Assembly: GCA_031287095.1 (NCBI GenBank)
Contig: JAITTG010000087.1
Coordinates: 26,023 to 90,022, forward strand
Direction of reading: 5' to 3'
DNA from: Candidatus Parendomicrobium reticulitermitis
GTDB lineage: Bacteria; Elusimicrobiota; Endomicrobiia; Endomicrobiales; Endomicrobiaceae
Length of the DNA stretch: 64,000 bases
This document shows, one piece after another, positions 13,368-62,745 of this stretch; positions within the stretch are counted from its first letter, which is position 1, and every line of letters starts with the position of its first letter. The notes beneath the pieces were generated by a model. The model did no database searches. It saw only the letters and a program-made list of their open reading frames with translations, and had not been told where the DNA came from. The position numbers and the translations under genes were made by a program.

Positions 13368-13600
13368 GCGTATATATCTCCTTTTTTCATATTTTCCTTT
13401 CTCCCGCTTTGCGTCCCTCGCTCTCTTTTCAAGGCATACTTTTCAAAATTCCTCTCCCGTAGGAGAGAGTGTCGCGAAGCAACGGGCGAGCGCTCCCATA
13501 TCCCCTATAGTCTTGCAGGTAATAGGGGGCTATTAACAACATTAAACCATTAGGGTTTGAGTATAGCGACCGACTTTAGTATCCCTTCTCCCGTTTTTTA
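13368..13600 (-). promoter_or_regulatory. composite repeat-built leader of pyk (one 82-nt two-hairpin element at 13501-13580 plus a purine-rich proximal module)
   Basis: Collinear, module by module, with the proS leader at 21513-21802. The proximal 45 nt is nearly identical to those of proS and the HD gene. Confidence 0.6.
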
Positions 13601-21512: not shown

Positions 21513-21802
21513 AGGGGGTGAAGGACGCAATGCGGGAGAGGGGACGCTAAAGTCAATCGCTACCCCCAAACCCTGAAAGGATTTAATGTAGTTAATAACC
21601 CCATATTGCCTGCAAGGCTATGCGGGGACAACAGGAGCGCGTCGCGACCCTCACCCGTAGTTGCGCGACACCTTCTCCTTCTCAATAGTCCCTTTTCCTA
21701 TCATATCCTCTCATATGGGAGAGAGACTTTGAAAAGCATGCCTTGAAAAGAGGGAGAGGGTCGCGAAAGCAGGAGAGGAAAAATAAGGAAAAAGGAGATA
21801 TT
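21513..21802 (+). promoter_or_regulatory. composite repeat-built leader of proS (one 82-nt two-hairpin element at 21548-21628 plus a purine-rich proximal module at 21728-21802)
   Basis: Same module order as the pyk leader. Ends in AAAAAGGAGATATTATG. Confidence 0.6.
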
Positions 21803-32329: not shown

Positions 32330-32441
32330 ATATCTTGCAAAACACAAAAATTCATTGAAATCAAAAACGCATTGAAAAAACAATATGAAAGATGAAATCA
32401 AGAATATAAAAATATGAAAATCCCAAAAACCCATGAAACTT

Positions 32442-32476
32442 GTAGGGCGCGGGTTTTCAACTCGCCCACCCTTACG
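32442..32476 (+). repeat. GTAG-headed REP palindrome, degenerate
   Basis: GTAGGGCGCGGGTTTTCAACTCGCCCACCCTTACG. The upstream AT-rich module (32330-32440) recurs at 19650-19740. Confidence 0.6.
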
Positions 32477-32640
32477 AATTAGATGATTAAATGCGAGGTT
32501 TCTTAAAAGCGGACAGAAACAAAAACCGGACGAGAAATCGTCTTAAAATTAAATAAAACCATCCACAAATAAGGATAATTGCGGGTAGTTTTTATGTTTT
32601 ATAAGCAAATAGCAAGCAAACAATTGAATATAGATGCAAT

Positions 32641-32799
32641 GGACCTCTTGCATAACTGATATACAAAAAATGTAAGAATATAAGATTGCCGTTGTGCGCT
32701 AACAGAACTCATCAGTGCGAAAACAAGATTGTCATTCTGCGCGAAGCCGTAGAATGACACTATCCCTCTATTTTTATGTGTTGGTTGCGCAAGAGATCT
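32641..32799 (+). mobile_element. non-autonomous TIR element (MITE), minimal 159-bp copy
   Basis: GGACCTCTTGC...GCAAGAGATCT termini. AAT at 32638-32640 and at 32800-32802. Internal GTCATTCTGCG/CGTAGAATGAC hairpin. Confidence 0.7.
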
Positions 32800-32806
32800 A
32801 ATGGAT

Positions 32807-32858
32807 AAAAAACCGCGCAGGCTAAAAGCGTAATGCTTTTGGTTTGCGCGGTTTTTTT
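32807..32858 (+). terminator. compound stem-loop with flanking A/T runs
   Basis: AAAAACCGCGCA...TGCGCGGTTTTTTT with an inner AAAAGC-GTAAT-GCTTTT hairpin. Confidence 0.5.
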
Positions 32859-32890
32859 GTTTGGCGGGGGCAAGAGCAAAAGAGCAAGGT

Positions 32891-33028
32891 ATGGGAAACG
32901 CAAAGAAGGCGGTAATTGAGACTAAAAGGAGCGGCAAGACGGCGTTGATAATGCGGGAGATGGCGATAAGGGCGGCAAAAGAGGCAGACCATGTGATGTT
33001 TAGGGTTAAGATGGCGTATGTAAAGTAA
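32891..33028 (+). pseudogene. 45-aa remnant with a P-loop-like KRSGKT, possibly the tail of a phage packaging ATPase gene
   Basis: MGNAKKAVIETKRSGKTALIMREMAIRAAKEADHVMFRVKMAYVK. Not in the ORF track. Sits immediately 5' of the portal-like frame. Confidence 0.25.
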
Positions 33029-33029
33029 G

Positions 33030-34355
33030 TTGAAAGACTTCTTTCCAACGCCCGCGCCTTTAAGGTCTGTCAAAAGCAACAGAACGCTAATTCCAAAGCC
33101 TGAACTTGATTTATACAGAGGCGAAGCCGACGATATAGCGAATATATCTAACCGCATAAAAATACTTGTAAAAGCAATCAAGGCGAACGGGTTTTATCCC
33201 GCAAGGTTTAAAGATTCAATAACGAAACTTGAAAACACCGACGACACGGAGTTGATAGCCGTAGATTTTGCCGACGATATTAGAGATTTAGGCGGCATAG
33301 ACAAGATGTTTCATTACAAGCCGATAGCGCAGTTTGAGCAAGTGGCAAAAGGATTATACGCTCAACAACAAAACTTAATCCAAGAGATATACGAGATAAC
33401 AGGGATAAGCGACATAATGCGCAACATATCCAAAGAAGAGACAGCCACAGCAACAAGACAAAAAGGCAAGTTTGGAAGTTTAAGATTACAACAAAGACAA
33501 TCGGCGTTAAACAATTACATCAAATCAATCTATACCATAGCGACAGAGTTAGTTTGCGAGTTATTTGACATAGACGCGTTAAAAGAAATCACATCAATGG
33601 CATTGCCTACAAACCAAGAACTTGCAGACTTTCAAACAAAACAGCAAACCGTTCAATCGCAATTTCAATCGGCAATGCAAGCCTATCAACAACAAATGCA
33701 ACAAGCGCAAGCGCAAGGACGGCAGTTGCAAATACAGGCTCCGCAACAACCGCAGGTTGCGCCGGAAGTATTAAAGTATTTTTCAAATCCCACATGGGAG
33801 AAGTTAAAGGAATACATAGAAGACAGCCGTTTACGCTCTTATTTGCTTGATGTAGAGACAAATTACAGCGTATGGGAGACAGATTTAGAAACGCAAAAAT
33901 CGCGCACAGAGTTATTTACAACAATTACGGACACCATACAAAAAGCGTCGCCGATAATAGCGGCAACGCCTGAACTTGCGGACATTTATATGAAGTTGAT
34001 TAGTTTCACCATAGACGGCTTTAAAGTATCAAGAAGCCTAAAGAACGGCATAGAGGACGCGTTGTTAGAGATAGTAGAGAACATAAAAAAGAAACAAGCG
34101 CAGCCTCCGCAACAACAGCCTGACGCTCAAATGCTGCTTGCGCAAGCGGAGATGAAAAAAGCGGAAGCGGAAGGCATAGTAGCAAAAGCAAGAATGCAGG
34201 AAGCTCAAGTAAAAGCAATGCAAGCGCAGGCGGAACTGCAACTTGAGCAAGCCAAAGTAAATATAGACACGCAAGCCAAACAAGCCGACATTCAACTTAA
34301 AGCGCAAAAGAATCAGATAGAGGCGGCAAAGCCGCTTTTTCCACAAACGATATAG
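33030..34355 (+). CDS. phage portal-like protein, probably N-terminally truncated
   Basis: TTG-initiated frame. Has ITGISDIMRN, a YLLDVETNYSV core and a long Q/A/K-rich C-terminal coiled coil of the kind seen in portal barrels. Gene order (portal, post-portal protein, scaffold) supports the call. Confidence 0.5.
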   Translation: MKDFFPTPAPLRSVKSNRTLIPKPELDLYRGEADDIANISNRIKILVKAIKANGFYPARFKDSITKLENTDDTELIAVDFADDIRDLGGIDKMFHYKPIAQFEQVAKGLYAQQQNLIQEIYEITGISDIMRNISKEETATATRQKGKFGSLRLQQRQSALNNYIKSIYTIATELVCELFDIDALKEITSMALPTNQELADFQTKQQTVQSQFQSAMQAYQQQMQQAQAQGRQLQIQAPQQPQVAPEVLKYFSNPTWEKLKEYIEDSRLRSYLLDVETNYSVWETDLETQKSRTELFTTITDTIQKASPIIAATPELADIYMKLISFTIDGFKVSRSLKNGIEDALLEIVENIKKKQAQPPQQQPDAQMLLAQAEMKKAEAEGIVAKARMQEAQVKAMQAQAELQLEQAKVNIDTQAKQADIQLKAQKNQIEAAKPLFPQTI

Positions 34356-34366
34356 GGTTATAAAAG

Positions 34367-35419
34367 ATGGATTACAAAGACATCACCCAACCCATACAAG
34401 CGGGCTTTAACAATTCAGATATAGGCATAGCGTTTAACCGCTCAATGCCGCGACCTGAAGAATACGAAAGATTAAGTCCGTTTAAAAAAGCGATAGCGGC
34501 AGGGGCAAGCATGGTAAGCGACAGTCCCGTATATATGCTTGGCGGGTTATTGGGCGCAGTAGCGGGCGGAGCGGGCGCGCCGATAGGAGCATTAGGATTA
34601 CAAAGAGGATATAGGCAATACTTAAACGAATTATACGGCAATGATGAAAACAGAAATACTGATATTATTTCAAGAGGCGCAAGGGTAGGCAGGGAGAGTT
34701 TATACGGAGCGGGCGAGGGTTTAGCGACGCAAAAAGCGGCTCAACTTTTAGGCAGCTTTGCTCCGCTTGTTTTAAACAAAATCGTAAATAAAAGAGTTCC
34801 GACGGTGAATGTAACTGACGATATGCTTATAAAACTTGAAAACAATTTACCTAATGGAATAAATAATCCTTTTTATAAATTCGTGCAAGACAATAGAAAA
34901 TGGATAGAGATGAAGCCTCAAATGGAATCAAATGCAGAAAGATATATCAACAATAAATTTGGAGTGAACAATTTAGACACTGCGGTAAAGGTAAAGTCGC
35001 CGATAGAGGATATAAACATAACGCCTGAATATTTGCAAAAACTTGTAAATCACCCGAGGGATATTCACAGAAACGAATTTGTTCCAGAGGCTTTGGCAAC
35101 TTTGGAAAGACCAAATCAGATTGTCAAAGATGCGCAAGGAAGGAATAATTATTTTAAATTGTTTTATGATGGAAAGTTTAAGCCTCATTTAAGCGGCGTT
35201 TCGCAGAAAGCAGATGAAACATTTTTCAATACAAGTTTTCCATTACAAGGCAGAAATATCACAAAAAGAATAGCGGGCGATACTATTTACCAAAAAAAAG
35301 ACGCCCCGCGGTGGGTAACACCGCGTGCGTCGACCCAATATATAGTAAATAATTCAAAAAGAATCAACGAGACAATGCGGAAATTGCTGGGCAGTTTTTA
35401 CAAGAAATATAAAAAGTAA
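34367..35419 (+). CDS. post-portal virion protein: Gly-rich membrane-like segment plus AT-rich C-terminal domain resembling phage PBECR-type nuclease modules
   Basis: Occupies the MuF/gp7 position. GGLLGAVAGGAGAPIGALG segment. C-terminal ...ITPEYLQKLVNHPRDIHRNEFVPEALATLERPNQIVKD... Composition switches from GC-rich to AT-rich near 34790. Confidence 0.45.
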   Translation: MDYKDITQPIQAGFNNSDIGIAFNRSMPRPEEYERLSPFKKAIAAGASMVSDSPVYMLGGLLGAVAGGAGAPIGALGLQRGYRQYLNELYGNDENRNTDIISRGARVGRESLYGAGEGLATQKAAQLLGSFAPLVLNKIVNKRVPTVNVTDDMLIKLENNLPNGINNPFYKFVQDNRKWIEMKPQMESNAERYINNKFGVNNLDTAVKVKSPIEDINITPEYLQKLVNHPRDIHRNEFVPEALATLERPNQIVKDAQGRNNYFKLFYDGKFKPHLSGVSQKADETFFNTSFPLQGRNITKRIAGDTIYQKKDAPRWVTPRASTQYIVNNSKRINETMRKLLGSFYKKYKK

Positions 35420-36601: not shown

Positions 36602-36618
36602 ACCGTCGTAAAGAAAAC

Positions 36619-36948
36619 TAAAGTCAATCGCCACAATCAAACCCTGAAAGGGTTTAATGAAGTTAATAACCCCGTATTGCCTGCAAGGCTATGCGGGGGC
36701 GATAAAGTCAATCGCAACAATCAAACACTGAAAGGGTTTAATGCAGTTAATAACCCCGTATTGCCACAGGCTATGCGGGGACGATAAAGTCAATCGCCAC
36801 AACCAAACCCTGAAAGGGTTTAATGCAGTTAATAACCCCGTATTGCCGCAGGCTATGCGGGGACGATAAAGTCAATCGCCGCACCCAAACCCTGAAAGGG
36901 TTTAATGTAGTTAATAACCCCGTATTGCCTGCAAAGGCTATGCGGGGA
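36619..36948 (+). repeat. four tandem copies of the 82-nt two-hairpin leader element
   Basis: Copies at 36619-36702, 36703-36784, 36785-36866 and 36867-36948. Stems conserved, linker and loop variable. Ends 15 nt before the rSAM ATG. Confidence 0.9.
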
Positions 36949-36963
36949 CACAAGGAAACCAAA

Positions 36964-38031
36964 ATGCAAAACTTTTTAAGGAACAAAATCAAAACCATTT
37001 TTATAAGTCTTGGCGGCGGGTGTAATTTGTCATGCTCTTATTGCTCGCAAAAAAAAGAACACATAGAAAACATAGCCGTCGTCAACAAAGACATATATAG
37101 ATTTATCAAAGAGCATGCGTCTTATCACAGCAAATCCGACAAATTAAAAGTCTTATTTTACGGCGGCGAACCGCTTTTATATTTTGACAAAATCAAAACC
37201 ATTGCCAAAAAAATCAAAAGCAAAAAAATACATTTCACAATAATCACCAACGGCAAACTATTAAATCAGGAAATAGTAAAGTTTTTAAATAAATATAAAT
37301 TCGGCGTTCAAGTGTCTTGGGACGGGCGGGCAAGTTTAGAAAGCAGAGGCTTTGACGCCGTGAAAGAAAAAAAGGATTTATTGTTTAAACTAAACTCAAT
37401 GTCGTTCTCGTCTATTATCACGGACAAATTGAGATTAAAAGATTTAGTTGAGGATATTGAAACATTCAATACAGAGTATGCCAAACGCAATAACGGGCGT
37501 ATTGCTAATGCAATAGTTGACGCTGTTAGAGACAGAAATAATGCCGCAGGACGCATAGATTACAATGTATTAGAGCAAGACATGAGAGACTTGATTAAAA
37601 GCGTATTTGTAGAAGGTAAAAACGAGTCGTTTAAATATTGGTTTAATTTAGAGTTTAAAAATTTAAGAAACTTTATAACCGTTTATAAAGACAAACAAAG
37701 CGTCCTGTCTCCTTGCCCTGAAGGTTTGCAGCATATCAGCATAAATTTGAAAGGAGACATTTTGCATTGCCATAATGCAAGCGGCATAAACGGGACTATA
37801 TACAGCGATTATTATGAGTATTTAAGCAAGGTATTGAGTAAAACCAAGTCCTGTCAAGAAGGCGCTTTCTGCGAAGTATATTCATTATGTAAAGGCGGGT
37901 GCAAACTTGCCAATGCGCTCGGCGAAAATACGGACATATATTGCCAATCGCGCAAAGCGTTGTTAAAACCGATTTTAGAGTTTGTATCTTATTTACATTA
38001 TGCGCTAACAAAGGAGGTTGTAAATGTTTGA
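36964..38031 (+). CDS. radical SAM enzyme with C-terminal SPASM-like Cys cluster domain
   Basis: GCNLSCSYC (CX3CX2C), a GGEPLL motif, and C-terminal CPEGLQHISINLKGDILHC...CQEGAFCEVYSLCKGGC...C. Start at 36964; the track ORF from 36823 reads through the repeat array. Confidence 0.8.
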   Translation: MQNFLRNKIKTIFISLGGGCNLSCSYCSQKKEHIENIAVVNKDIYRFIKEHASYHSKSDKLKVLFYGGEPLLYFDKIKTIAKKIKSKKIHFTIITNGKLLNQEIVKFLNKYKFGVQVSWDGRASLESRGFDAVKEKKDLLFKLNSMSFSSIITDKLRLKDLVEDIETFNTEYAKRNNGRIANAIVDAVRDRNNAAGRIDYNVLEQDMRDLIKSVFVEGKNESFKYWFNLEFKNLRNFITVYKDKQSVLSPCPEGLQHISINLKGDILHCHNASGINGTIYSDYYEYLSKVLSKTKSCQEGAFCEVYSLCKGGCKLANALGENTDIYCQSRKALLKPILEFVSYLHYALTKEVVNV

Positions 38032-38827
38032 AATTAGAAATAATACGCAAACCCAAAATTCAAAAGATGAGACAAAATTAAGTTTAAATTTAAAAGGACA
38101 AAAACTCTTTATCAATGTAGAAAGAGAGGACGCTCAATTTAACGAAGTATTAAATTTAAAATCTTATTCTATGTATAAAGTATTTCAGACAGATAATGAA
38201 CCTATATACTTTGTAGATGTCAACAGAATAACTTCGCTATTTAGACTGCCCAGAAAAGATTATAAGCAATTGCCAAATGACTCGGGCTATATCTTTTCCA
38301 TTAAAACGGGAATGATTTCAGACAGCGTCCGCGATATTCTAATAGACAATAAAGACATAAAAAAAGAAAACATCAAAATAATATCGGATATGCCTTACAA
38401 TCAATCGGATTTAGACTTTAAACTAAAACTCGCCATGCAAGACAAAACGCTTCTTGATTACTTTTCTCTATCTGCAAACGGGCAGGAATACAAAGCCGAC
38501 AGCGCAGGCAATAATATAGACGGCGATTTTGACAAACCGATAATCCCGCTTTATACCGATGGCAAAAGCAATTTACCCTTTGCAGAGTTTGTCATTCAAA
38601 AATATCTGCGCCGTTTTGAAGCGCCTTTAAACAGAGACATAGACAATGACGAAGTAACCGTTGAAAGTTCGGCTGGTTTAGTAAATACGCGGCGCGCATA
38701 TATGCAAAACGGCATTACAAAATTCAGGCTTTATCCTTTCGGTTATGAGGGCAAAATCAAAATCAAAATCGGACGGCGTTGGTATGAAAACTTAAACGAA
38801 TACAATTTAATTTTAGGCGGCGCATAA
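38024..38827 (+). CDS. hypothetical protein, translationally coupled to the rSAM gene
   Basis: 8-nt overlap with the rSAM stop. 267 aa, no Cys, very AT-rich like the rSAM gene. No family recognised. Confidence 0.5.
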   Translation: MFEIRNNTQTQNSKDETKLSLNLKGQKLFINVEREDAQFNEVLNLKSYSMYKVFQTDNEPIYFVDVNRITSLFRLPRKDYKQLPNDSGYIFSIKTGMISDSVRDILIDNKDIKKENIKIISDMPYNQSDLDFKLKLAMQDKTLLDYFSLSANGQEYKADSAGNNIDGDFDKPIIPLYTDGKSNLPFAEFVIQKYLRRFEAPLNRDIDNDEVTVESSAGLVNTRRAYMQNGITKFRLYPFGYEGKIKIKIGRRWYENLNEYNLILGGA

Positions 38828-38834
38828 AATAATG

Positions 38835-38862
38835 GCAGGGGCGAACCTATATGTTCGCCCGC
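38835..38862 (+). repeat. REP palindrome GCAGGGGCGAAC-CTATAT-GTTCGCCC
   Basis: Stem variant of the GGGGCAGAC...GTCTGCCCC family; both arms changed together. Confidence 0.7.
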
Positions 38863-38886
38863 AAAACAAACAACAGGAGGCAACAA

Positions 38887-39678
38887 ATGAACGGACAATT
38901 TACCAATCCCGCGCCGCAAATATACGGCGACGGAATTTTTGCAAACTATGTTAGGAACTCAAAAAACGCAAGCGGCAACGCTTTAGCCGCCGCATTACAA
39001 GCGGACGCCGACAAAAAGAAATCAATGCAAAATCCCGGCGGTAAAAGTTATGCGACAAGCAAACTTGAAGAAGCGGGCAAAATGGGCGCGGGCTATGTAA
39101 GCGGTTTAGCAAATGTATTAGCGGGCGTTTCGCAAGGGCATGACGCAAACAAACAAAAAGAATACGACGCGTATAAAAACGAGAAATTAGCAAACGCCAT
39201 GGCTACAGGCGACGCTTCAAGCGCGGTAGAGTTTGACGCGGACTTGGCAAAAACTTTAGCCGAAAACAATCTCAAAAAACAACAAGCCGCCGAGAAAATG
39301 GCTTTTGATAAAGAAATGAATCAAAGCAATCAAGATTATGATTATCAAAAAGTATTAGGCAGTTACGGACAGCAAAGCAAAGAAAACGCCGCTCAAAGAA
39401 AACTCCAATGGGACATAGCAAACCTAAAAGACGCAAGCGCAGGCGGCGGCGATGACAAGACAATAGCGGGAATGCCCGAGAAAGCCTTTTATGAGTTATA
39501 CAACAAATTAAGTCCGAAAGACCAAGCGCAAGTATTGCAAAAACCCGACCTTATACACGCAAGCAAAAACAGAGGCTTTTTTGGTTCAAAACTCGGCGCA
39601 GGCAAACATAGCGCGGTATTGGGCAAAGGCGCGCCTCAAACAGCGCAAAATCCCTACGCGTCAAAATATGGCTTTTAA
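38887..39678 (+). CDS. low-complexity A/K/Q/G-rich phage protein (internal virion protein-like)
   Basis: ATG at 38887 behind AGGAGG. GC-rich like the phage backbone. The last 11 codons are duplicated downstream of the REP at 39680. Confidence 0.45.
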   Translation: MNGQFTNPAPQIYGDGIFANYVRNSKNASGNALAAALQADADKKKSMQNPGGKSYATSKLEEAGKMGAGYVSGLANVLAGVSQGHDANKQKEYDAYKNEKLANAMATGDASSAVEFDADLAKTLAENNLKKQQAAEKMAFDKEMNQSNQDYDYQKVLGSYGQQSKENAAQRKLQWDIANLKDASAGGGDDKTIAGMPEKAFYELYNKLSPKDQAQVLQKPDLIHASKNRGFFGSKLGAGKHSAVLGKGAPQTAQNPYASKYGF

Positions 39679-39753: not shown

Positions 39754-42207
39754 ATGAATAAAAATTTAGCGCAGATTAGAAACAATGTAGGCATAATGCT
39801 ATCCAAAGGCGCGCCGGAAGAGGATATAGACGGCTATTTAGCCAGCGTAGGCTCAAACGCCGACGAAATCAAAAACTATAAAGACCCGGGCATAGTATCT
39901 GCCGGCTTGTTTGCAAATGCCGCCGAAGGCGCGACAGTAGGTCTTGCCGATGTGTTATACGGCGCAGGCGGCGCGTCATTAAAGAAGTTCAAAGACGCCG
40001 TCAGCGGCAACGATAACAGTCCCAAAATAACAAGGGGGCTTTCAGGTTTTACTCTTATAAACGACGGCGACAATAAATTGAGGCAAGCCACAAAAGAGGA
40101 AGACGACGCAAACAAAGCGTCATGGAGCAACCTATTTAACGAATACAGAAAAGACTTTAACGATACCAAAAATCAATACAATGATTATCACGGCGCAATC
40201 GGCACGGTGGCAGATGTGGCGGGCAGTTTTGCTCCTATCATATTAACAGGCGGCGCGGGAGCATTAGTCAAAGGCGGCGCAACGGCTGGCAAAGCGGGTT
40301 TAGGTCAATTAGCAAAACAAGGATTTAAAACAGGCGGCAAATGGGGCGGCGCTTACGGCGCGGGCAATGGTTTAACAGAAGGGGACGAATTGTCAATCGG
40401 CAACGCTTTATTAGGCGGCGCAACAGGTTTAGGTATGGGAGCGGCAGGCGGGGCATTATTGCCTGTATTGGGTTCTTTTGCGGGCAAAGCGATAAAACCT
40501 TTTACAAAGCAAGGCAAGTTTGACAGATTCGCAAAAAAAATCGGGATGGATAAAATTGACGAGTCAATAGAAAACAATAGACCGCTTATAGAGAATGCCG
40601 ATGAGAATATAATGTCAATGGCGGAAGGAGCAGGTCTTAATAATGTCGGCGCCCGTCAAATACTGCATGACTATGCCAATATAAGAAAAGGACAGCAAGT
40701 AGGCATAATTGACGACCAAATAAATAATACTTTTGGCGCAAAAGGCGCAGACGCAGTGACAAGAGAGATTGAGGAAGCGGGTAAAAGAGAGTATCAAATG
40801 CTTTATGATAAGGCACTAAACCAGCCTCACGGCGTTATACCTAATTTAGAACCAACCTTAAAAAACCCGCGCATTGCCAAAGCGTTAAAAGTAGTCCGCA
40901 AAGAATATCCCGAATACGACCAATTTCCAGACACGCATATACAAGTGCTTGACTTAGTTAAACAACAATTAGACGACGATATAGCCAAAGCGGTGAATTT
41001 TAATGAAAAGTTAAAAGCAGGCTTTTTACTTGAAGCAAAAGATAATTTAGTAGCGAAACTTGATAAAGCGTCGCCAATATACAAAGAGGCAAGAGGTTCA
41101 TTTGCCGGCATGAAAGATTTGCAATCTTTTGTTGATAAAGGCAGAAACTACAACAAAATGACAAGAGAAGAGATAGAGGAATTATCTAAAACTTTAACGC
41201 CGGAAAACAAAAAAGCCTTTAATGCCGGCATAAGAGAAACGCTTATAAAGAACCTTGACGACGGGGCAAAGAGCGAGGGTGTAAATGTTGCAAGGCGGGT
41301 ATTTGACGACAGCACTTTACGCAAACTTGAAGGATTGGGCATAGACGATTTTCAACAATTAAAAGACATCATGCTTAAAGAAAGGCAAACAATGCAAAAC
41401 ATCAATCGCTTTGCAAGCGGCAGTCAAACAGCGGAACGAGAAGCCGATAAACAATTTAGGCAAGCCTTGCCTGTAAAAATGATTTTTAACCCAATCCGCA
41501 CAGCTAAGAAACTTACAGAAAAAGCATATTTAAAAGCATTAGGTTTAGGCGATGAAGAGATTGCAAGATATTTGACAAATACAGGCGCGCTTGCGAAAGC
41601 AAGGAGCGGAGGAACATCAAGCCGTGTAAATATCAATCCAGTATTTACAAAAGGCTATTCTGCCACGCAACTCAAAGATAAGGCAATAAAAAATGAAATA
41701 CGAGATAAATATGCCGATTGGTATAAGAATAATTTACAAGGTGAGAAATATCAAAAAGAAGGGTTAGAAAGCGATATAGATTTTAATAGATTTGGTAAGA
41801 ACGAACCTCAAAGCAATAGCGCTTATATAAATAAGTTGGACTTTGGAAAGTATGCAAAAGAATTGATTGATACAGGTAAATTAAGTGGTCAAAAGAAACT
41901 GAAACACCCAAGTGAGCGATATAAGTATTTTAAGAATATTTATACTCCCGTAGAATATAACGGAAAGAAAATGAAATCAAGCATATTTTTAGGTAAAAAT
42001 AAATTTGATTCAGGCTATACCTATCACGATTTTTCGCCTATGGATTATAGTGTCATTGGGGATTATCTTTATAACAGACCAGCAGATAATAAACTCAATG
42101 ATATAACAAAGTTACTTGGAAGTTTTGCAGGAATAAAACAAGATTTAGTAAGTAATCCTATCAGAAAACTGCTTGGAAGTTATGAATATTTATTAAGGAA
42201 AAAATAA
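39754..42207 (+). CDS. large multi-domain virion protein (polyvalent/ejection-protein-like) with an AT-rich C-terminal module
   Basis: 817 aa. Gly-rich segment at aa 150-245. Composition switches to AT-rich near 41640. LGSFA-type motif recurs four times. Confidence 0.45.
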   Translation: MNKNLAQIRNNVGIMLSKGAPEEDIDGYLASVGSNADEIKNYKDPGIVSAGLFANAAEGATVGLADVLYGAGGASLKKFKDAVSGNDNSPKITRGLSGFTLINDGDNKLRQATKEEDDANKASWSNLFNEYRKDFNDTKNQYNDYHGAIGTVADVAGSFAPIILTGGAGALVKGGATAGKAGLGQLAKQGFKTGGKWGGAYGAGNGLTEGDELSIGNALLGGATGLGMGAAGGALLPVLGSFAGKAIKPFTKQGKFDRFAKKIGMDKIDESIENNRPLIENADENIMSMAEGAGLNNVGARQILHDYANIRKGQQVGIIDDQINNTFGAKGADAVTREIEEAGKREYQMLYDKALNQPHGVIPNLEPTLKNPRIAKALKVVRKEYPEYDQFPDTHIQVLDLVKQQLDDDIAKAVNFNEKLKAGFLLEAKDNLVAKLDKASPIYKEARGSFAGMKDLQSFVDKGRNYNKMTREEIEELSKTLTPENKKAFNAGIRETLIKNLDDGAKSEGVNVARRVFDDSTLRKLEGLGIDDFQQLKDIMLKERQTMQNINRFASGSQTAEREADKQFRQALPVKMIFNPIRTAKKLTEKAYLKALGLGDEEIARYLTNTGALAKARSGGTSSRVNINPVFTKGYSATQLKDKAIKNEIRDKYADWYKNNLQGEKYQKEGLESDIDFNRFGKNEPQSNSAYINKLDFGKYAKELIDTGKLSGQKKLKHPSERYKYFKNIYTPVEYNGKKMKSSIFLGKNKFDSGYTYHDFSPMDYSVIGDYLYNRPADNKLNDITKLLGSFAGIKQDLVSNPIRKLLGSYEYLLRKK

Positions 42208-42355: not shown

Positions 42356-42661
42356 ATGCAACAAATACCAATCCACACAGACGGCAAACCTGAAGGCGAG
42401 ATGTCGGCGTTTTGCCTATGCAAAGAGGGCAACGGCGCAGTTCTTGAAACCATAGGTTTAACAGAAGGACAAATCCAAATTGAAATGACGACATTTCAAG
42501 ACAATTACAAGTCTTGCGCAGACGACGACGGCAACCCCTTAATAATCACGCCGACAGACAATTTGATAGTTGAATTAGAAAACGCGCCATACTACATAAG
42601 GGCGATGTATGACGGCGCCCAAGACGCAAGCGAAATAACAATAGTATTAAGGAGGCAATAA
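42356..42661 (+). CDS. hypothetical small acidic phage protein
   Basis: 101 aa, strong AGGAGG SD. Its stop overlaps the next start (TAATG). Confidence 0.45.
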   Translation: MQQIPIHTDGKPEGEMSAFCLCKEGNGAVLETIGLTEGQIQIEMTTFQDNYKSCADDDGNPLIITPTDNLIVELENAPYYIRAMYDGAQDASEITIVLRRQ

Positions 42662-42963
42662 TGGGATTTTGGAAAAAACATTTCGGCAAAACCAGCGGCG
42701 CAGTAAAAGCCGCATGGGGCAAAATAACAGGCGACATAGATGCTCAAACGGACTTGAAAGATAAACTTGACGGCAAAGCAGACATTGCCAACACTTACAC
42801 AAAAGCCGAGACAGACGAAGAAATAACAAACGCTCAATTAGCAACACAGCAATGGCTTCCTGCGGTTGATACAAAAGCATTTGTCATATTTATCAAGGAG
42901 CGTATATTCTATAAGTTTGATTGCTATGTTTACATCGGATTCTTTTTCCTCGTGTCTTTGTAA
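42661..42963 (+). pseudogene. N-terminal fragment of a phage tail-fibre-like protein
   Basis: DIDAQTDLKDKLDGKADIANTYTKAETDEEITNAQ is a common tail-fibre N-terminal pattern. After about aa 72 the frame turns into AT-rich nonsense, which marks a deletion junction. Confidence 0.45.
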
Positions 42964-42989: not shown

Positions 42990-43304
42990 TTAGATATTTT
43001 CTTTGTTATTACATTTTGTTATTGATTTATATTTAAAGTTTCCGAGAATGATTTCAATGTTTAAAAAATTTAATGCAAATAGATATGTTTTATGTCTTTG
43101 AACAGAAGCAATCCCTATATATTTTGCTAATGCAGAAAAGTGTATGATTTCTGCATTTGTTTTATCATCAGTATCATTTAAAAAAGATTCAATAAGCGTT
43201 CTATAATTAATCCATTTTATAGGACTCTTAAACTTGCGCTGATAAATGTTTATTTTATGATAGTAATTAAATCCATCTATTAACGCTAAAATTCTGTTTT
43301 TCAT
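42990..43304 (-). pseudogene. NYN-domain (LabA-like) protein fragment
   Basis: MKNRILALIDGFNYYH... N-terminus is typical of NYN nucleases. Only about 104 aa, ending before the usual C-terminal part. Confidence 0.4.
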
Positions 43305-43553
43305 ATTATTACCCTTTATGCAAAAAAAGAGGGGCAACTCTAATGAGTTTCCCCGACCGCTTAATAAAATGGAGTGTAAGGAAAAGGCGCTCGCATCTCA
43401 CGCCTGCCGCCAGATATGCGCCCTTTATTCATTGCGCGGCGGCTGCAACTTGCGAGAAGCCTTTGTTGTTGTATAACGCATCATAACCAACTCCTGTCCA
43501 AAAATAGTAAAATACTCCCTTTGAAAAAATCACATACAAGGAGTTAAACTCAA

Positions 43554-60649: not shown

Positions 60650-60665
60650 TTGTATCTCCTTGTGT

Positions 60666-60907
60666 CCCCGCATAGCCTTGCGGGCAATATCGGGTTATTA
60701 ACGACATTAAACCCTTTCAGGGTTTGGGTGGCGATCGGTCTATCATCCCCGCATAGCCTGCGGCAATACGGGGTTATTAACAACATTGAACCCTTTCAGT
60801 GTTTATGGGTGGTAAATTGGTCTATCATCCCCGCATAGCCTGCGGCAATGCGGGGTTATCAACGACATTAAACCCTTTCAGTGTTTGGTTGTGACGATTG
60901 ATTTTAG
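60666..60907 (-). repeat. three tandem copies of the 82-nt two-hairpin leader element
   Basis: Copies at 60666-60746, 60747-60828 and 60829-60907. Co-oriented with DUF1844. The last copy ends 16 nt before the ATG. Confidence 0.9.
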
Positions 60908-61118
60908 CACTGATGCTATGTGATGCTATGTGTTACGCTGTCAACTGCAGGCTTGACCCATGTCTTGTGCCGTCGTCGTGCGCAATCCCCGCAATGACAA
61001 ACCTAATCTTGCGACAACAAACCTAAACCCGCACAAAATCCAAAGATTGCGATGACAAACCTAATCCCGTAATTGACGGCGTTGCAAGTCTGTAATTGAC
61101 GATAAAAACATATCTTTC

Positions 61119-62600: not shown

Positions 62601-62613
62601 AACGGCTCCTTGT

Positions 62614-62745
62614 TCCCCGCGTATAGTCTTGCAGACAATACGGAGTTATTAACGACATTAACCTCTTTCGGAATTTAATTGCAGCGATTGATTTTAGTAT
62701 CCCCGCAGCCTTATTAACAGCCCTAAACTCTTTTAGGATTTAGCG
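62614..62745 (-). repeat. one full and one internally deleted copy of the leader element upstream of gltX
   Basis: Full copy at about 62614-62697 and a degenerate copy at 62699-62745, followed by a REP palindrome at 62748-62775. Confidence 0.75.

Follow-up and report, generated by a model that had tools for sequence, protein, structure and literature searches.

A radical-SAM/SPASM gene and its Cys-free partner in a truncated prophage of Candidatus Parendomicrobium reticulitermitis: a probable remnant of a phage cassette for Cys-tailed proteins

We analyzed a stretch of 64,000 nucleotides from Candidatus Parendomicrobium reticulitermitis (phylum Elusimicrobiota; assembly GCA_031287095.1, contig JAITTG010000087.1, positions 26,023 to 90,022), hereafter called the window, with a focus on two adjoining open reading frames (ORFs). 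One encodes a radical S-adenosylmethionine (SAM) enzyme with a SPASM-type C-terminus, referred to as rSAM; the other encodes a protein of 267 amino acids without Cys, referred to as p267. The two ORFs overlap by 8 nt (ATGTTTGA) and have the coordinates given in an earlier reading of the bare sequence (the original prediction). They are housed in a prophage fragment of ~9.8 kb that is truncated at both ends (Table 1).

Table 1. Features of the prophage fragment and its borders (coordinates refer to the window)
Feature	Coordinates	Strand	Basis or remarks
Portal gene, 5'-truncated	33030..34355	+	C-terminal ~440 aa of a ~750-790-aa portal left
350-aa protein	34367..35419	+	Weak PBECR2 nuclease-domain match; minor head or polyvalent-type suggested by position
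Scaffold-like gene, 392 aa	35423..36601	+	Acidic, Lys-rich N-terminus; position
Four tandem copies of 82-bp structured host intergenic repeat	36617..36960	+	Tandem Repeats Finder (TRF), nhmmer
Radical-SAM/SPASM enzyme (rSAM), 355 aa	36964..38031	+	ATG 36964, TGA 38031
Cys-free 267-aa all-beta protein, p267 family	38024..38827	+	ORF; 8-nt overlap with rSAM
275-aa protein, Cys-free, Ala/Gln/Lys-rich	38851..39678	+	Position and composition
817-aa protein with LPD3 (large polyvalent-protein-associated) domain	39754..42207	+	Pfam, PHROG
Two small ORFs, 101 aa and 100 aa	42356..42963	+	Right end of phage block
NYN-domain gene, truncated	42990..43337	-	115 aa vs. 234 aa in L068; right block border

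The rSAM protein combines a Cys20-X3-Cys24-X2-Cys27 motif with the sequence GGEPLL at residues 67-72, and it scored above threshold against both Pfam Radical_SAM (PF04055; 55.8 bits, cut-off 29.5) and Fer4_12 (30.3 bits, cut-off 22). The CX3CX2C motif and the PF04055 match place it in the Radical SAM superfamily. Its C-terminal part contains seven Cys, arranged as C251-X12-G264-X4-C269, C297-X5-C303-X5-C309-X3-C313 and C327, and all of these motifs are present as the original prediction had described them. SPASM proteins are recognized by about seven Cys, two auxiliary 4Fe-4S clusters and the arrangement CX9-15GX4C ... CX2CX5CX3C ... C, from which rSAM differs in the first spacing of the second block (CX5C vs. 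CX2C); the Pfam SPASM model was not among its matches at E ≤ 0.01. In an alignment of six sequences of the rSAM family, six of the seven C-terminal Cys are invariant; the invariance of the seventh, C297, is limited to the three closest sequences. A match to the structure of CteB (5wgg; E = 1.5e-11) covers residues 7-325 and includes the SPASM Cys. The ORF is intact and keeps every family-invariant residue, and the protein lacks an N-terminal recognition domain, starting ~10 residues before the CX3CX2C motif.

It should be noted that the deposited annotation of this gene (P0071) gives a protein of 402 amino acids whose start, at 36823, falls within the array of 82-bp repeats and is 47 codons too early. 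Since the homologues align from the Met at 36964, and since the position of a ribosome-binding site agrees with it, 36964 is the supported start. The same repeat-derived in-frame extension (MRGHKExxM) is borne by the ORF of a DUF1844 protein at 60673.

Comparison with curated enzyme families gave the best score for PapB (NF047865; E = 3e-28, 99 bits, cut-off 340, residues 9-319 aligned), followed by CcpM (TIGR04068; E = 1.8e-21, 76.6 bits, cut-off 500), the SCIFF maturase (TIGR03974; E = 3.2e-18, 65.8 bits, cut-off 425), the anaerobic sulfatase-maturating enzyme anSME (TIGR03942; E = 8.3e-18, 64.6 bits, cut-off 349) and CefB (NF038107; E = 2.4e-13, 49.7 bits, cut-off 600). Every one of these NCBIfam scores lies far under its curated cut-off, and rSAM therefore belongs to no named family. 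The profile searches thus agree with the original prediction, which could not assign the pair to any described system, and they did not place the enzyme in a characterized family with a known substrate.

The partner protein, p267, had no match in Pfam, PHROGs or NCBIfam, nor among GenBank phages, and contains no Cys at all. A HMMER scan of 1.84 billion representative proteins recovered 65 p267-related clusters. An AlphaFold2 model built on 43 family members, which we used instead of an earlier model on six sequences (pLDDT 70), reached a predicted local distance difference test (pLDDT) score of 91.4 and a predicted template-modeling (pTM) score of 0.86, and it consists of beta-sandwich domains with a few short helices. 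Foldseek searches with this model returned only Ig-like, intimin-type domains from the PDB (overall TM <0.3), and uncharacterized phage proteins of 250-305 amino acids from BFVD (TM 0.5-0.59, E = 1e-10 to 1e-12). Residues K193, D207, G230 and G243 are invariant in the family, and no Cys is conserved. We rejected the idea, which the original prediction had left open, that p267 is itself a capsid protein of the HK97 fold: the model is all-beta and of high confidence, no capsid protein was matched, and elsewhere the family is found in tail-fiber regions. What p267 shares with such a capsid protein is only the position in the gene order, after the homologue of the scaffold-like gene in two related podophage contigs (L007 and L008; loci are referred to by L numbers).

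To place the pair in context, we searched for p267 loci with the six-sequence alignment, as the 43-sequence one was too divergent to serve as a query. Our analysis showed that rSAM and p267 belong to a phage and prophage cassette found at more than 100 loci. In a census based on the p267 family, an rSAM ORF lies no more than 200 nt downstream at all 47 loci with enough flanking sequence. A second, independent scan of metagenomes was based on the window-type enzyme (rSAM-A) and restricted to loci with at least 6 kb of flank on both sides (n = 40); p267 lies on the same strand in 36 of the 40 and an ORF with a Cys-rich C-terminal tail (Cys tail) occurs within 4.5 kb, likewise, in 36. The pair thus travels together and is syntenic in other genomes. 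The p267 carriers comprise 38 IMG/VR loci and five bacterial genomes (Acidaminococcus fermentans, an Acidaminococcaceae metagenome-assembled genome, Ruminococcus sp., Megasphaera sueciensis and a Selenomonadaceae metagenome-assembled genome), and every context recovered for p267 is phage or prophage. An alignment of Elusimicrobia-type rSAM sequences retrieved nothing from IMG/VR.

The usual site of the cassette, in siphophage-type prophages of gut anaerobes, is after the tape-measure, Dit and tail-fiber genes and before the lysis genes. It occurs there in full form in prophages of Acidaminococcus, Megasphaera, Selenomonadaceae and Ruminococcus, and in numerous viral contigs from the gut. In its full form the cassette encodes one or more fiber-like proteins with a Cys tail, often two proteins made of CQx repeats (CQx proteins), rSAM-A, a 124-amino acid protein (p124), p267, a second and shorter radical-SAM enzyme (rSAM-B), and a 223-amino acid protein (p223). 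In its minimal form it consists of a Cys-tail protein, rSAM-A, and then p267, which overlaps rSAM-A; in L092 this minimal core is followed by rSAM-B and further genes. On the chromosome of Megasphaera sueciensis (L066), genes for the tape measure, Dit, proteins of 414, 207 and 112 amino acids and a tail fiber (phrog_2631, E = 4.7e-31) precede the cassette, and small ORFs separate it from the downstream genes. The cassette of L022 borders, at its end, on genes for an integrase and an S24-type repressor. At L002 and L005 the order is PhageMin_Tail (tape measure), Phage-tail_3, p267, a 308-amino acid rSAM, p223 and a 362-amino acid rSAM, followed by a diversity-generating retroelement. This retroelement, which consists of an Mtd_N-/DUF6273-type target and a reverse transcriptase, lies directly downstream of the cassette (L002, 14585-18881; L005, 14613-18896), and two different systems that would act on fiber proteins stand side by side at these loci.

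The Cys tail is found at the end of fiber-like proteins of ~200-670 amino acids, where an amphipathic helix, (P)AGTYxLxxIIQxLIN, is followed by the element SHTH, ~8-12 residues, (N/D)C(N/D)C(N/D)C and (G/S)DD(G/S)G. Among the cassette ORFs, the C[GSA]DD motif lies at most 5 residues from the C-terminus in 191 of its 199 occurrences. At many loci, two ORFs of 100-150 amino acids located directly after rSAM-A are made up nearly entirely of CQxCQx repeats and bear the same tail at their end. These CQx ORFs have no Pfam match and seem to represent a novel class, either of hyper-Cys phage proteins or of precursors. Pairs of them occur in L025-L067 and L073-L148 (e.g., L066 6687-7400), contain 13-22 Cys and end in CNCDCGDDGG. 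Located between the Cys-rich ORFs and p267, p124 (L066 7397-7792 and homologues, ~124 amino acids) has an N-terminal match, below cut-off (2.8e-4), to Hint_2, an intein-like autoprocessing domain. A different elaboration of the theme is seen in the more distant locus L070 (6923-12657; also L071), which has four radical-SAM genes in a row, Cys-rich ORFs of 117 and 119 amino acids behind the window-type enzyme (37% identity) and no p267 gene. Finally, the N-terminal ~105 columns of the p267 alignment matched p223 with an hhalign probability of 60% (E = 8e-5), a hint that the N-terminal part of p267 is distantly related to the protein behind rSAM-B and that each radical-SAM enzyme of the cassette has a beta-rich partner.

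The window enzyme aligns with the phage rSAM-A genes over its full length (28-34% identity, E = 1e-24 to 1e-54), and its similarity to the shorter rSAM-B is restricted to the N-terminal core; the window enzyme is therefore the rSAM-A orthologue. Its best match among phage families is phrog_1802 (E = 3.8e-38), a family without an assigned function whose members include proteins of the Achromobacter phages JWF and 2-1. The gene of the latter closely follows the one for the baseplate hub/Tal protein and precedes the lysis genes. These Achromobacter enzymes are only ~26% identical to rSAM, their neighbors have no Cys tail, and no p267 homologue accompanies them. One Achromobacter phage record names the enzyme an anaerobic sulfatase maturase, probably wrongly. 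We also note that both JWF and 2-1 (L001, 31782-33140) are cultured siphophages, in which the phrog_1802 enzyme is encoded between Tal-side hypothetical genes and the endolysin.

Base composition follows the cassette as well. The fraction of G and C (GC) is 0.355 in the rSAM gene and 0.351 in the p267 gene, as compared with 0.40-0.45 in the flanking phage-like genes and 0.38 in the whole window. The pair is indeed AT-rich relative to its flanks, as originally predicted, but to call it strongly AT-rich was an overstatement, as both genes are only slightly below the host average. The same dip recurs in L069 (0.35 for rSAM and p267 vs. 0.44-0.45 for the neighboring phage genes), in L068 (0.34-0.35 vs. 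0.44) and in L092 (0.27 vs. 0.42-0.49). The low GC content therefore belongs to the cassette and is no sign of adaptation to the host.

The enzymes closest to rSAM are those of L068 and L069 (39-40% identity; the proteins P0072 and P0073 are likewise 39-40% identical to it). In L068, another Elusimicrobiota metagenome-assembled genome, a 229-amino acid protein that ends in ...SNASHKHQQTILNCNCDCNCGCCADS is encoded directly before rSAM (a longer stretch of its C-terminus reads ...LENLLTLLSNASHKHQQTILNCNCDCNCGCCADS), and a p267 homologue overlaps the 3' end of rSAM, with the contig ending inside the p267 gene. In L069, a full-length portal of 747 amino acids (47% identical to that of the window) is followed by a scaffold-like protein (38%), a 49-amino acid ORF, rSAM (39%) and p267 (40%). 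This 49-amino acid ORF (MSAGTNALTDILNSLIAAAHTHSFLTTQCTSEVTYTNCRNCNCGCCEGL) bears the Cys tail and lies in the slot that the repeat array holds in the window. It aligns with the last ~50-60 residues of the fiber-like proteins, and the similarity extends upstream of its Met, which fits an old deletion from the capsid gene through most of the fiber gene; alternatively, it could be a native small gene. In L068, L069 and L092, p267 stands next to rSAM on the same strand, as it does in the window. Neither rSAM-B nor p223 nor p124 was found in the short contigs L068 (which ends within p267) and L069.

Of the components of the cassette, the window retains the rSAM-A orthologue and the adjoining p267 on the same strand; the Cys-tail ORF, rSAM-B, p223, p124 and the location in a tail module are absent. 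Six-frame motif scans of the 64 kb found no Cys-tail or SHTH-type ORF, in line with the original prediction, which had seen no small precursor ORF. The window also contains no second phage-type radical-SAM gene, no p223 and no p124, and its 275- and 817-amino acid genes have no similarity to these families. The slot between the scaffold-like gene and rSAM (36602-36963), where L068 and L069 hold a Cys-tail ORF, is made up of the four 82-bp repeats except for ~30 nt.

The repeat itself is a host element. TRF delimited 4.0 copies of the 82-bp unit at 36619-36949 with 92% matches, and an nhmmer search of the window yielded 10 copies at five loci: 13486-13580 (-), 21545-21641 (+), 36617-36960 (+), 60653-60908 (-) and 62602-62698 (-), two of which (36617-36960 and 60653-60908) are tandem arrays. 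At all five loci the repeat is upstream of, and co-oriented with, a gene, in this order the genes for pyruvate kinase, prolyl-tRNA synthetase (ProRS), rSAM, the DUF1844 protein and glutamyl-tRNA synthetase (GluRS). The description of a four-copy, host-type leader array shared with housekeeping genes was thus accurate. At three loci the 3' end of the repeat provides an AGGAG- or AAGGA-type site a few nt before the start codon, and the last unit before rSAM supplies an AAGGA Shine-Dalgarno-like site 8 nt ahead of its start. The RNA is predicted to fold into two hairpins (z = -3.7), and compensatory changes between copies are seen at some stem positions. No Rfam family was matched at gathering thresholds (matches at E ~0.7 are at chance level), and a scan of 36.3-39.9 kb for promoters and terminators gave counts no higher than the shuffled expectation. 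The repeat may act as a structured 5' leader, or it may be an intergenic repeat of this lineage that carries a promoter. It is the chief reason to think that the host might still control the expression of the orphaned pair; just as well, it could be an intergenic element that has spread and overwritten the substrate ORF.

The genes around the pair show how much of the prophage has been lost. The portal ORF matches phrog_12082 (portal; E = 2.7e-84) over profile positions 280-696 of 715, and in tblastn comparisons the portals of eight related contigs (771-819 amino acids) begin to match at window positions 33027-33030, at their own residues ~245-325; the 5' third of the portal gene is therefore gone. 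The missing N-terminal part of the portal left no trace in the window that tblastn with the same eight contigs could detect. Terminase, capsid and tail genes are absent from the block, and the proteins of the eight contigs revealed no remnants of them either. At the right end, the 100-amino acid ORF matches the tail protein family phrog_25379 (E = 7.2e-05, profile positions 123-180 of 384) and resembles a piece of the N-terminal part of a tail protein, its 3' end running into the remnant of the NYN gene. The truncated NYN ORF shares 67% identity with the N-terminal half of the NYN protein that L068 has in intact form, and similarity to the L068 DNA (72%, opposite strand) continues beyond the end of the ORF to window position 42874. 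A search for att-like direct repeats at the block borders found only chance matches of 9-11 nt.

The position of the pair in this fragment was also correctly recognized from the outset. In L007 and L008 the gene order is large terminase subunit (TerL), portal, a 116-amino acid protein, a homologue of the scaffold-like gene and the major head protein (phrog_9953, E = 1.9e-108), which means that a capsid gene would be expected where the rSAM and p267 pair sits. The scaffold-like gene is homologous to the 382-amino acid protein between portal and major head protein in these contigs (25% identity, E = 1e-25) and to the 348-amino acid post-portal protein of L069 (38% identity, E = 1e-61). Family searches with it gave no match, and its position and composition suggest the scaffold label.

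We consider it likely, though well short of certain, that the rSAM and p267 pair is a substrate-less, two-gene remnant of the phage Cys-tail/radical-SAM cassette, left in a prophage fragment truncated at both ends. Decay of, or deletion in, the prophage would have left the pair without its Cys-tail ORF, and the host repeat would have come to fill the slot. The pair may be a relic that has not yet decayed, or it may have been retained, with the host leader driving its expression and its substrate being encoded at another site. The cassette itself appears to be undescribed in the searchable literature: full-text searches for radical SAM/SPASM enzymes or ranthipeptides in phages, prophages, tail fibers or virions found nothing relevant.

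By analogy with PapB and CteB, rSAM-A would install thioether cross-links in the Cys/Asn/Asp C-terminal tail of the fiber-like proteins. The tail is the proposed target because it is the only conserved Cys-rich sequence beside the enzyme and because of the likeness of the enzyme to PapB and CteB, SPASM maturases that join the sulfur of Cys to a carbon of Asp, Asn or another residue. The original prediction had pointed to the 267-amino acid partner or to a neighboring virion protein as the substrate, which is less likely than the Cys-rich fiber tail that the closest relatives encode directly upstream and that is missing here. Such thioether links would provide a redox-insensitive staple for the fiber tips of phages that infect strict anaerobes. 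In phage fiber tips, HxH motifs bind metal in trimeric fibers, and the SHTH element of the tail is therefore consistent with a fiber-tip context. Most likely, p267 is a fiber-associated virion component or assembly partner that would work with the enzyme; this is the weakest part of the model.

Among described systems, the PapB-type ranthipeptide maturases come closest. PapB forms Cys-Asp and Cys-Glu thioethers, is substrate-tolerant and can act at C-termini without a leader (PMC10739248, PMC9413430, PMC12373016, PMC12715619). Like PapB, the window enzyme is compact, without a long N-terminal extension, and the tolerance of PapB for C-terminal, leader-independent substrates has its counterpart in a candidate tail that is C-terminal and rich in Cys, Asp and Asn. 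Unlike in PapB systems, the presumed substrates of the cassette are structural-type proteins of 200-670 amino acids and CQx proteins of 100-150 amino acids rather than short PapA-like peptides, the enzyme is paired with p267 and located in phage tail modules, and its score is far below the PapB cut-off. Furthermore, a PapB system has an adjacent short CX3D/E precursor; the window contains no Cys-containing small ORF, and its relatives carry (N/D)CxCxC..DD tails on larger proteins. CteB, the closest solved structure by sequence, forms thioethers in a Cys-rich peptide. It has an N-terminal recognition element (RRE) of ~90 residues that is absent from rSAM, the alignment beginning at CteB residue 94, and, unlike in SCIFF systems, neither a SCIFF peptide nor a Cys-containing small ORF is present in the window. 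The CcpM and CefB ('Cys-every-fifth') maturases lie beside precursors with regularly spaced Cys, which parallels the 'Cys-every-third' CQx ORFs of the phage cassettes; these differ from the precursors in repeat period, sequence and virion-module context, no such ORF is found in the window, and the CcpM and CefB scores are far below their cut-offs.

A bolder version of this model is that radical-SAM/SPASM enzymes staple virion proteins, with thioethers in the tails of both the tail-fiber and the CQx proteins, with p267 (Ig-like and with an invariant Lys and Asp) as a tip or assembly partner that is conceivably attached covalently, and with the window pair captured behind a housekeeping-type leader. 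We put this forward tentatively, as a possibility rather than an expectation.

Several observations weigh against the remnant model or the chemistry attached to it. In both the window and L069, the pair is located behind portal and scaffold (head) genes and not in a distal tail module, and it could have a lineage-specific, head-associated role, for instance with a head fiber or decoration protein. The host-type leader and the well-placed ribosome-binding site before rSAM fit a retained function too. All ORFs of the phage block are intact, including the one of 817 amino acids, which fits retained function equally with recent decay. Thioether formation is proposed by analogy, with scores far below every curated cut-off. 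SPASM enzymes also form C-C and C-O links, epimerize residues and convert Cys to formylglycine, and the Cys/His tail could simply bind metal. No RRE-like fold, chaperone signature or adhesin signature is recognizable in p267. Finally, the search for a substrate covered 64 kb of the genome.

An unlikely but serious competitor is that the pair was domesticated: the host would have kept rSAM-A and p267 after decay of the prophage, under a housekeeping-type leader, and their substrate would now be either a protein of the host or one that another prophage encodes beyond the limits of the window. The presence of the element of the pyruvate kinase, ProRS, GluRS and DUF1844 genes before rSAM, in the same orientation and supplying the Shine-Dalgarno-like site, speaks for it, although the repeat also forms tandem arrays elsewhere (60653-60908) and may merely spread through intergenic DNA, and promoter-like sites do not exceed chance. 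Both ORFs are intact with all family-invariant residues kept, but the adjacent remnant genes are just as intact, and the pair does not stand out in this respect. L068, from another Elusimicrobiota genome, has kept the pair too; there and in L069, however, a phage substrate ORF is still present and such a leader is not. The 64 kb contain no substrate for the pair.

The original prediction took the cassette for a host-adopted insertion in place of the capsid gene, with the 267-amino acid partner or a neighboring virion protein as the substrate. The missing capsid gene, the host leader and the lower GC content of the pair relative to its flanks were the reasons for this view, and the invariant Asp and Lys of p267 are, in principle, possible modification sites. 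It did not hold up, and we regard a host origin as very improbable: both families occur overwhelmingly in phage contexts, almost exclusively in phage and prophage tail modules; L069 has the same synteny without the host repeat; the GC dip repeats in phage loci, as a property of the cassette itself; no Cys is conserved in p267, and the neighboring proteins of the window are almost free of Cys; and the fold of p267 is not that of a capsid protein. There is a low, though somewhat higher, probability that the cassette is a phage-carried cluster for a bacteriocin-like peptide that is made on the ribosome and modified after translation (RiPP). A short Cys-rich peptide, such as the 49-amino acid ORF of L069 or a CQx protein, would be matured and released, p267 would be an accessory or immunity factor, and the fiber C-terminus would have been recruited as a precursor. 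The layout, in which a short Cys-rich ORF comes immediately ahead of a SPASM maturase or immediately behind it, is typical of RiPPs, and the nearest enzyme families are all RiPP maturases. Set against this, the cassette includes no conserved protease, transporter or immunity gene, the same tail ends fiber-like proteins of 200-670 amino acids in structural modules, and the cassette is always within the late/tail operon on the same strand. That the enzyme resembles the anaerobic sulfatase maturases or a cofactor-maturing SPASM enzyme in function, and cross-links no peptide, we hold to be scarcely credible. The anSME structures 4k36-4k39 match its N-terminal core at E ~6e-9, TIGR03942 gives the match listed above, and one Achromobacter phage homologue is so annotated; on the other side, the 64.6 bits fall far short of the cut-off (349), neither a sulfatase nor a protein with the C/S-x-P/A-x-R motif is encoded at any of the cassette loci whose gene and Pfam tables were inspected, and the conserved neighbors are Cys-tail proteins.

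The remaining genes of the block have few relatives. The 350-amino acid protein matched Pfam PBECR2 (E = 7.9e-05, 23.3 bits) without reaching the cut-off of 27.1, had no match in a PHROG search and has no counterpart between portal and scaffold in L069. The 275-amino acid protein has no match in Pfam, PHROGs or NCBIfam and no homologue in any fetched locus; its composition and position suggest an internal virion protein of the remnant. The 817-amino acid protein matched LPD3 above cut-off (Pfam, E = 8.3e-10) and phrog_5880 (E = 4.9e-26), has no relative among GenBank phages, and retrieved only itself in a word-indexed protein search. The phage block encodes very few Cys, and three of them are in the 101-amino acid ORF (42356-42661); one stretch inside this ORF, KSCADDDGN, is similar to the C[GS]DD[GS]G with which the cassette tails end. 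We rejected it as a hidden substrate, as the motif is internal and the cassette loci hold no homologue; it is a weak lead at most. In L068, the intact NYN gene is divergent and adjoins the genes for a 246-amino acid protein, the fiber, rSAM and p267, and the NYN gene may thus itself be phage-borne.

At the left border of the phage block, the stretch 32330-33030 is taken up by a second family of intergenic repeats (~45-60 bp, 79-91% identity), further copies of which lie near 2888, 9738, 19267, 30773, 31130, 59914 and 60071. This family yields spurious ORF extensions (...GFAQNDN...) on adjacent genes.

As a relic without a substrate, the window copy is probably of limited interest alone; it exposes a recurrent cassette of two radical-SAM/SPASM enzymes, two beta-rich partners, and fiber-like and hyper-Cys proteins with a common Cys/Asn/Asp tail at the C-terminus. 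For Elusimicrobiota, our analysis corrects the deposited rSAM gene model and documents a structured 82-bp leader repeat before housekeeping genes. Cultured hosts of the cassette are available in Megasphaera sueciensis TMW 2.2488, with its prophage at chromosome positions 343905-360507, and Acidaminococcus fermentans WCA-389-WT-5B. If the tails are modified, the chemistry of RiPPs would reach full-size virion proteins and, as far as our literature search shows, a radical-SAM enzyme would for the first time be seen to modify a structural protein of a phage. The cassette would then supply new protein-stapling enzymes with a defined C-terminal tag, and would explain how fiber tips are stabilized without disulfides in gut phages of strict anaerobes.

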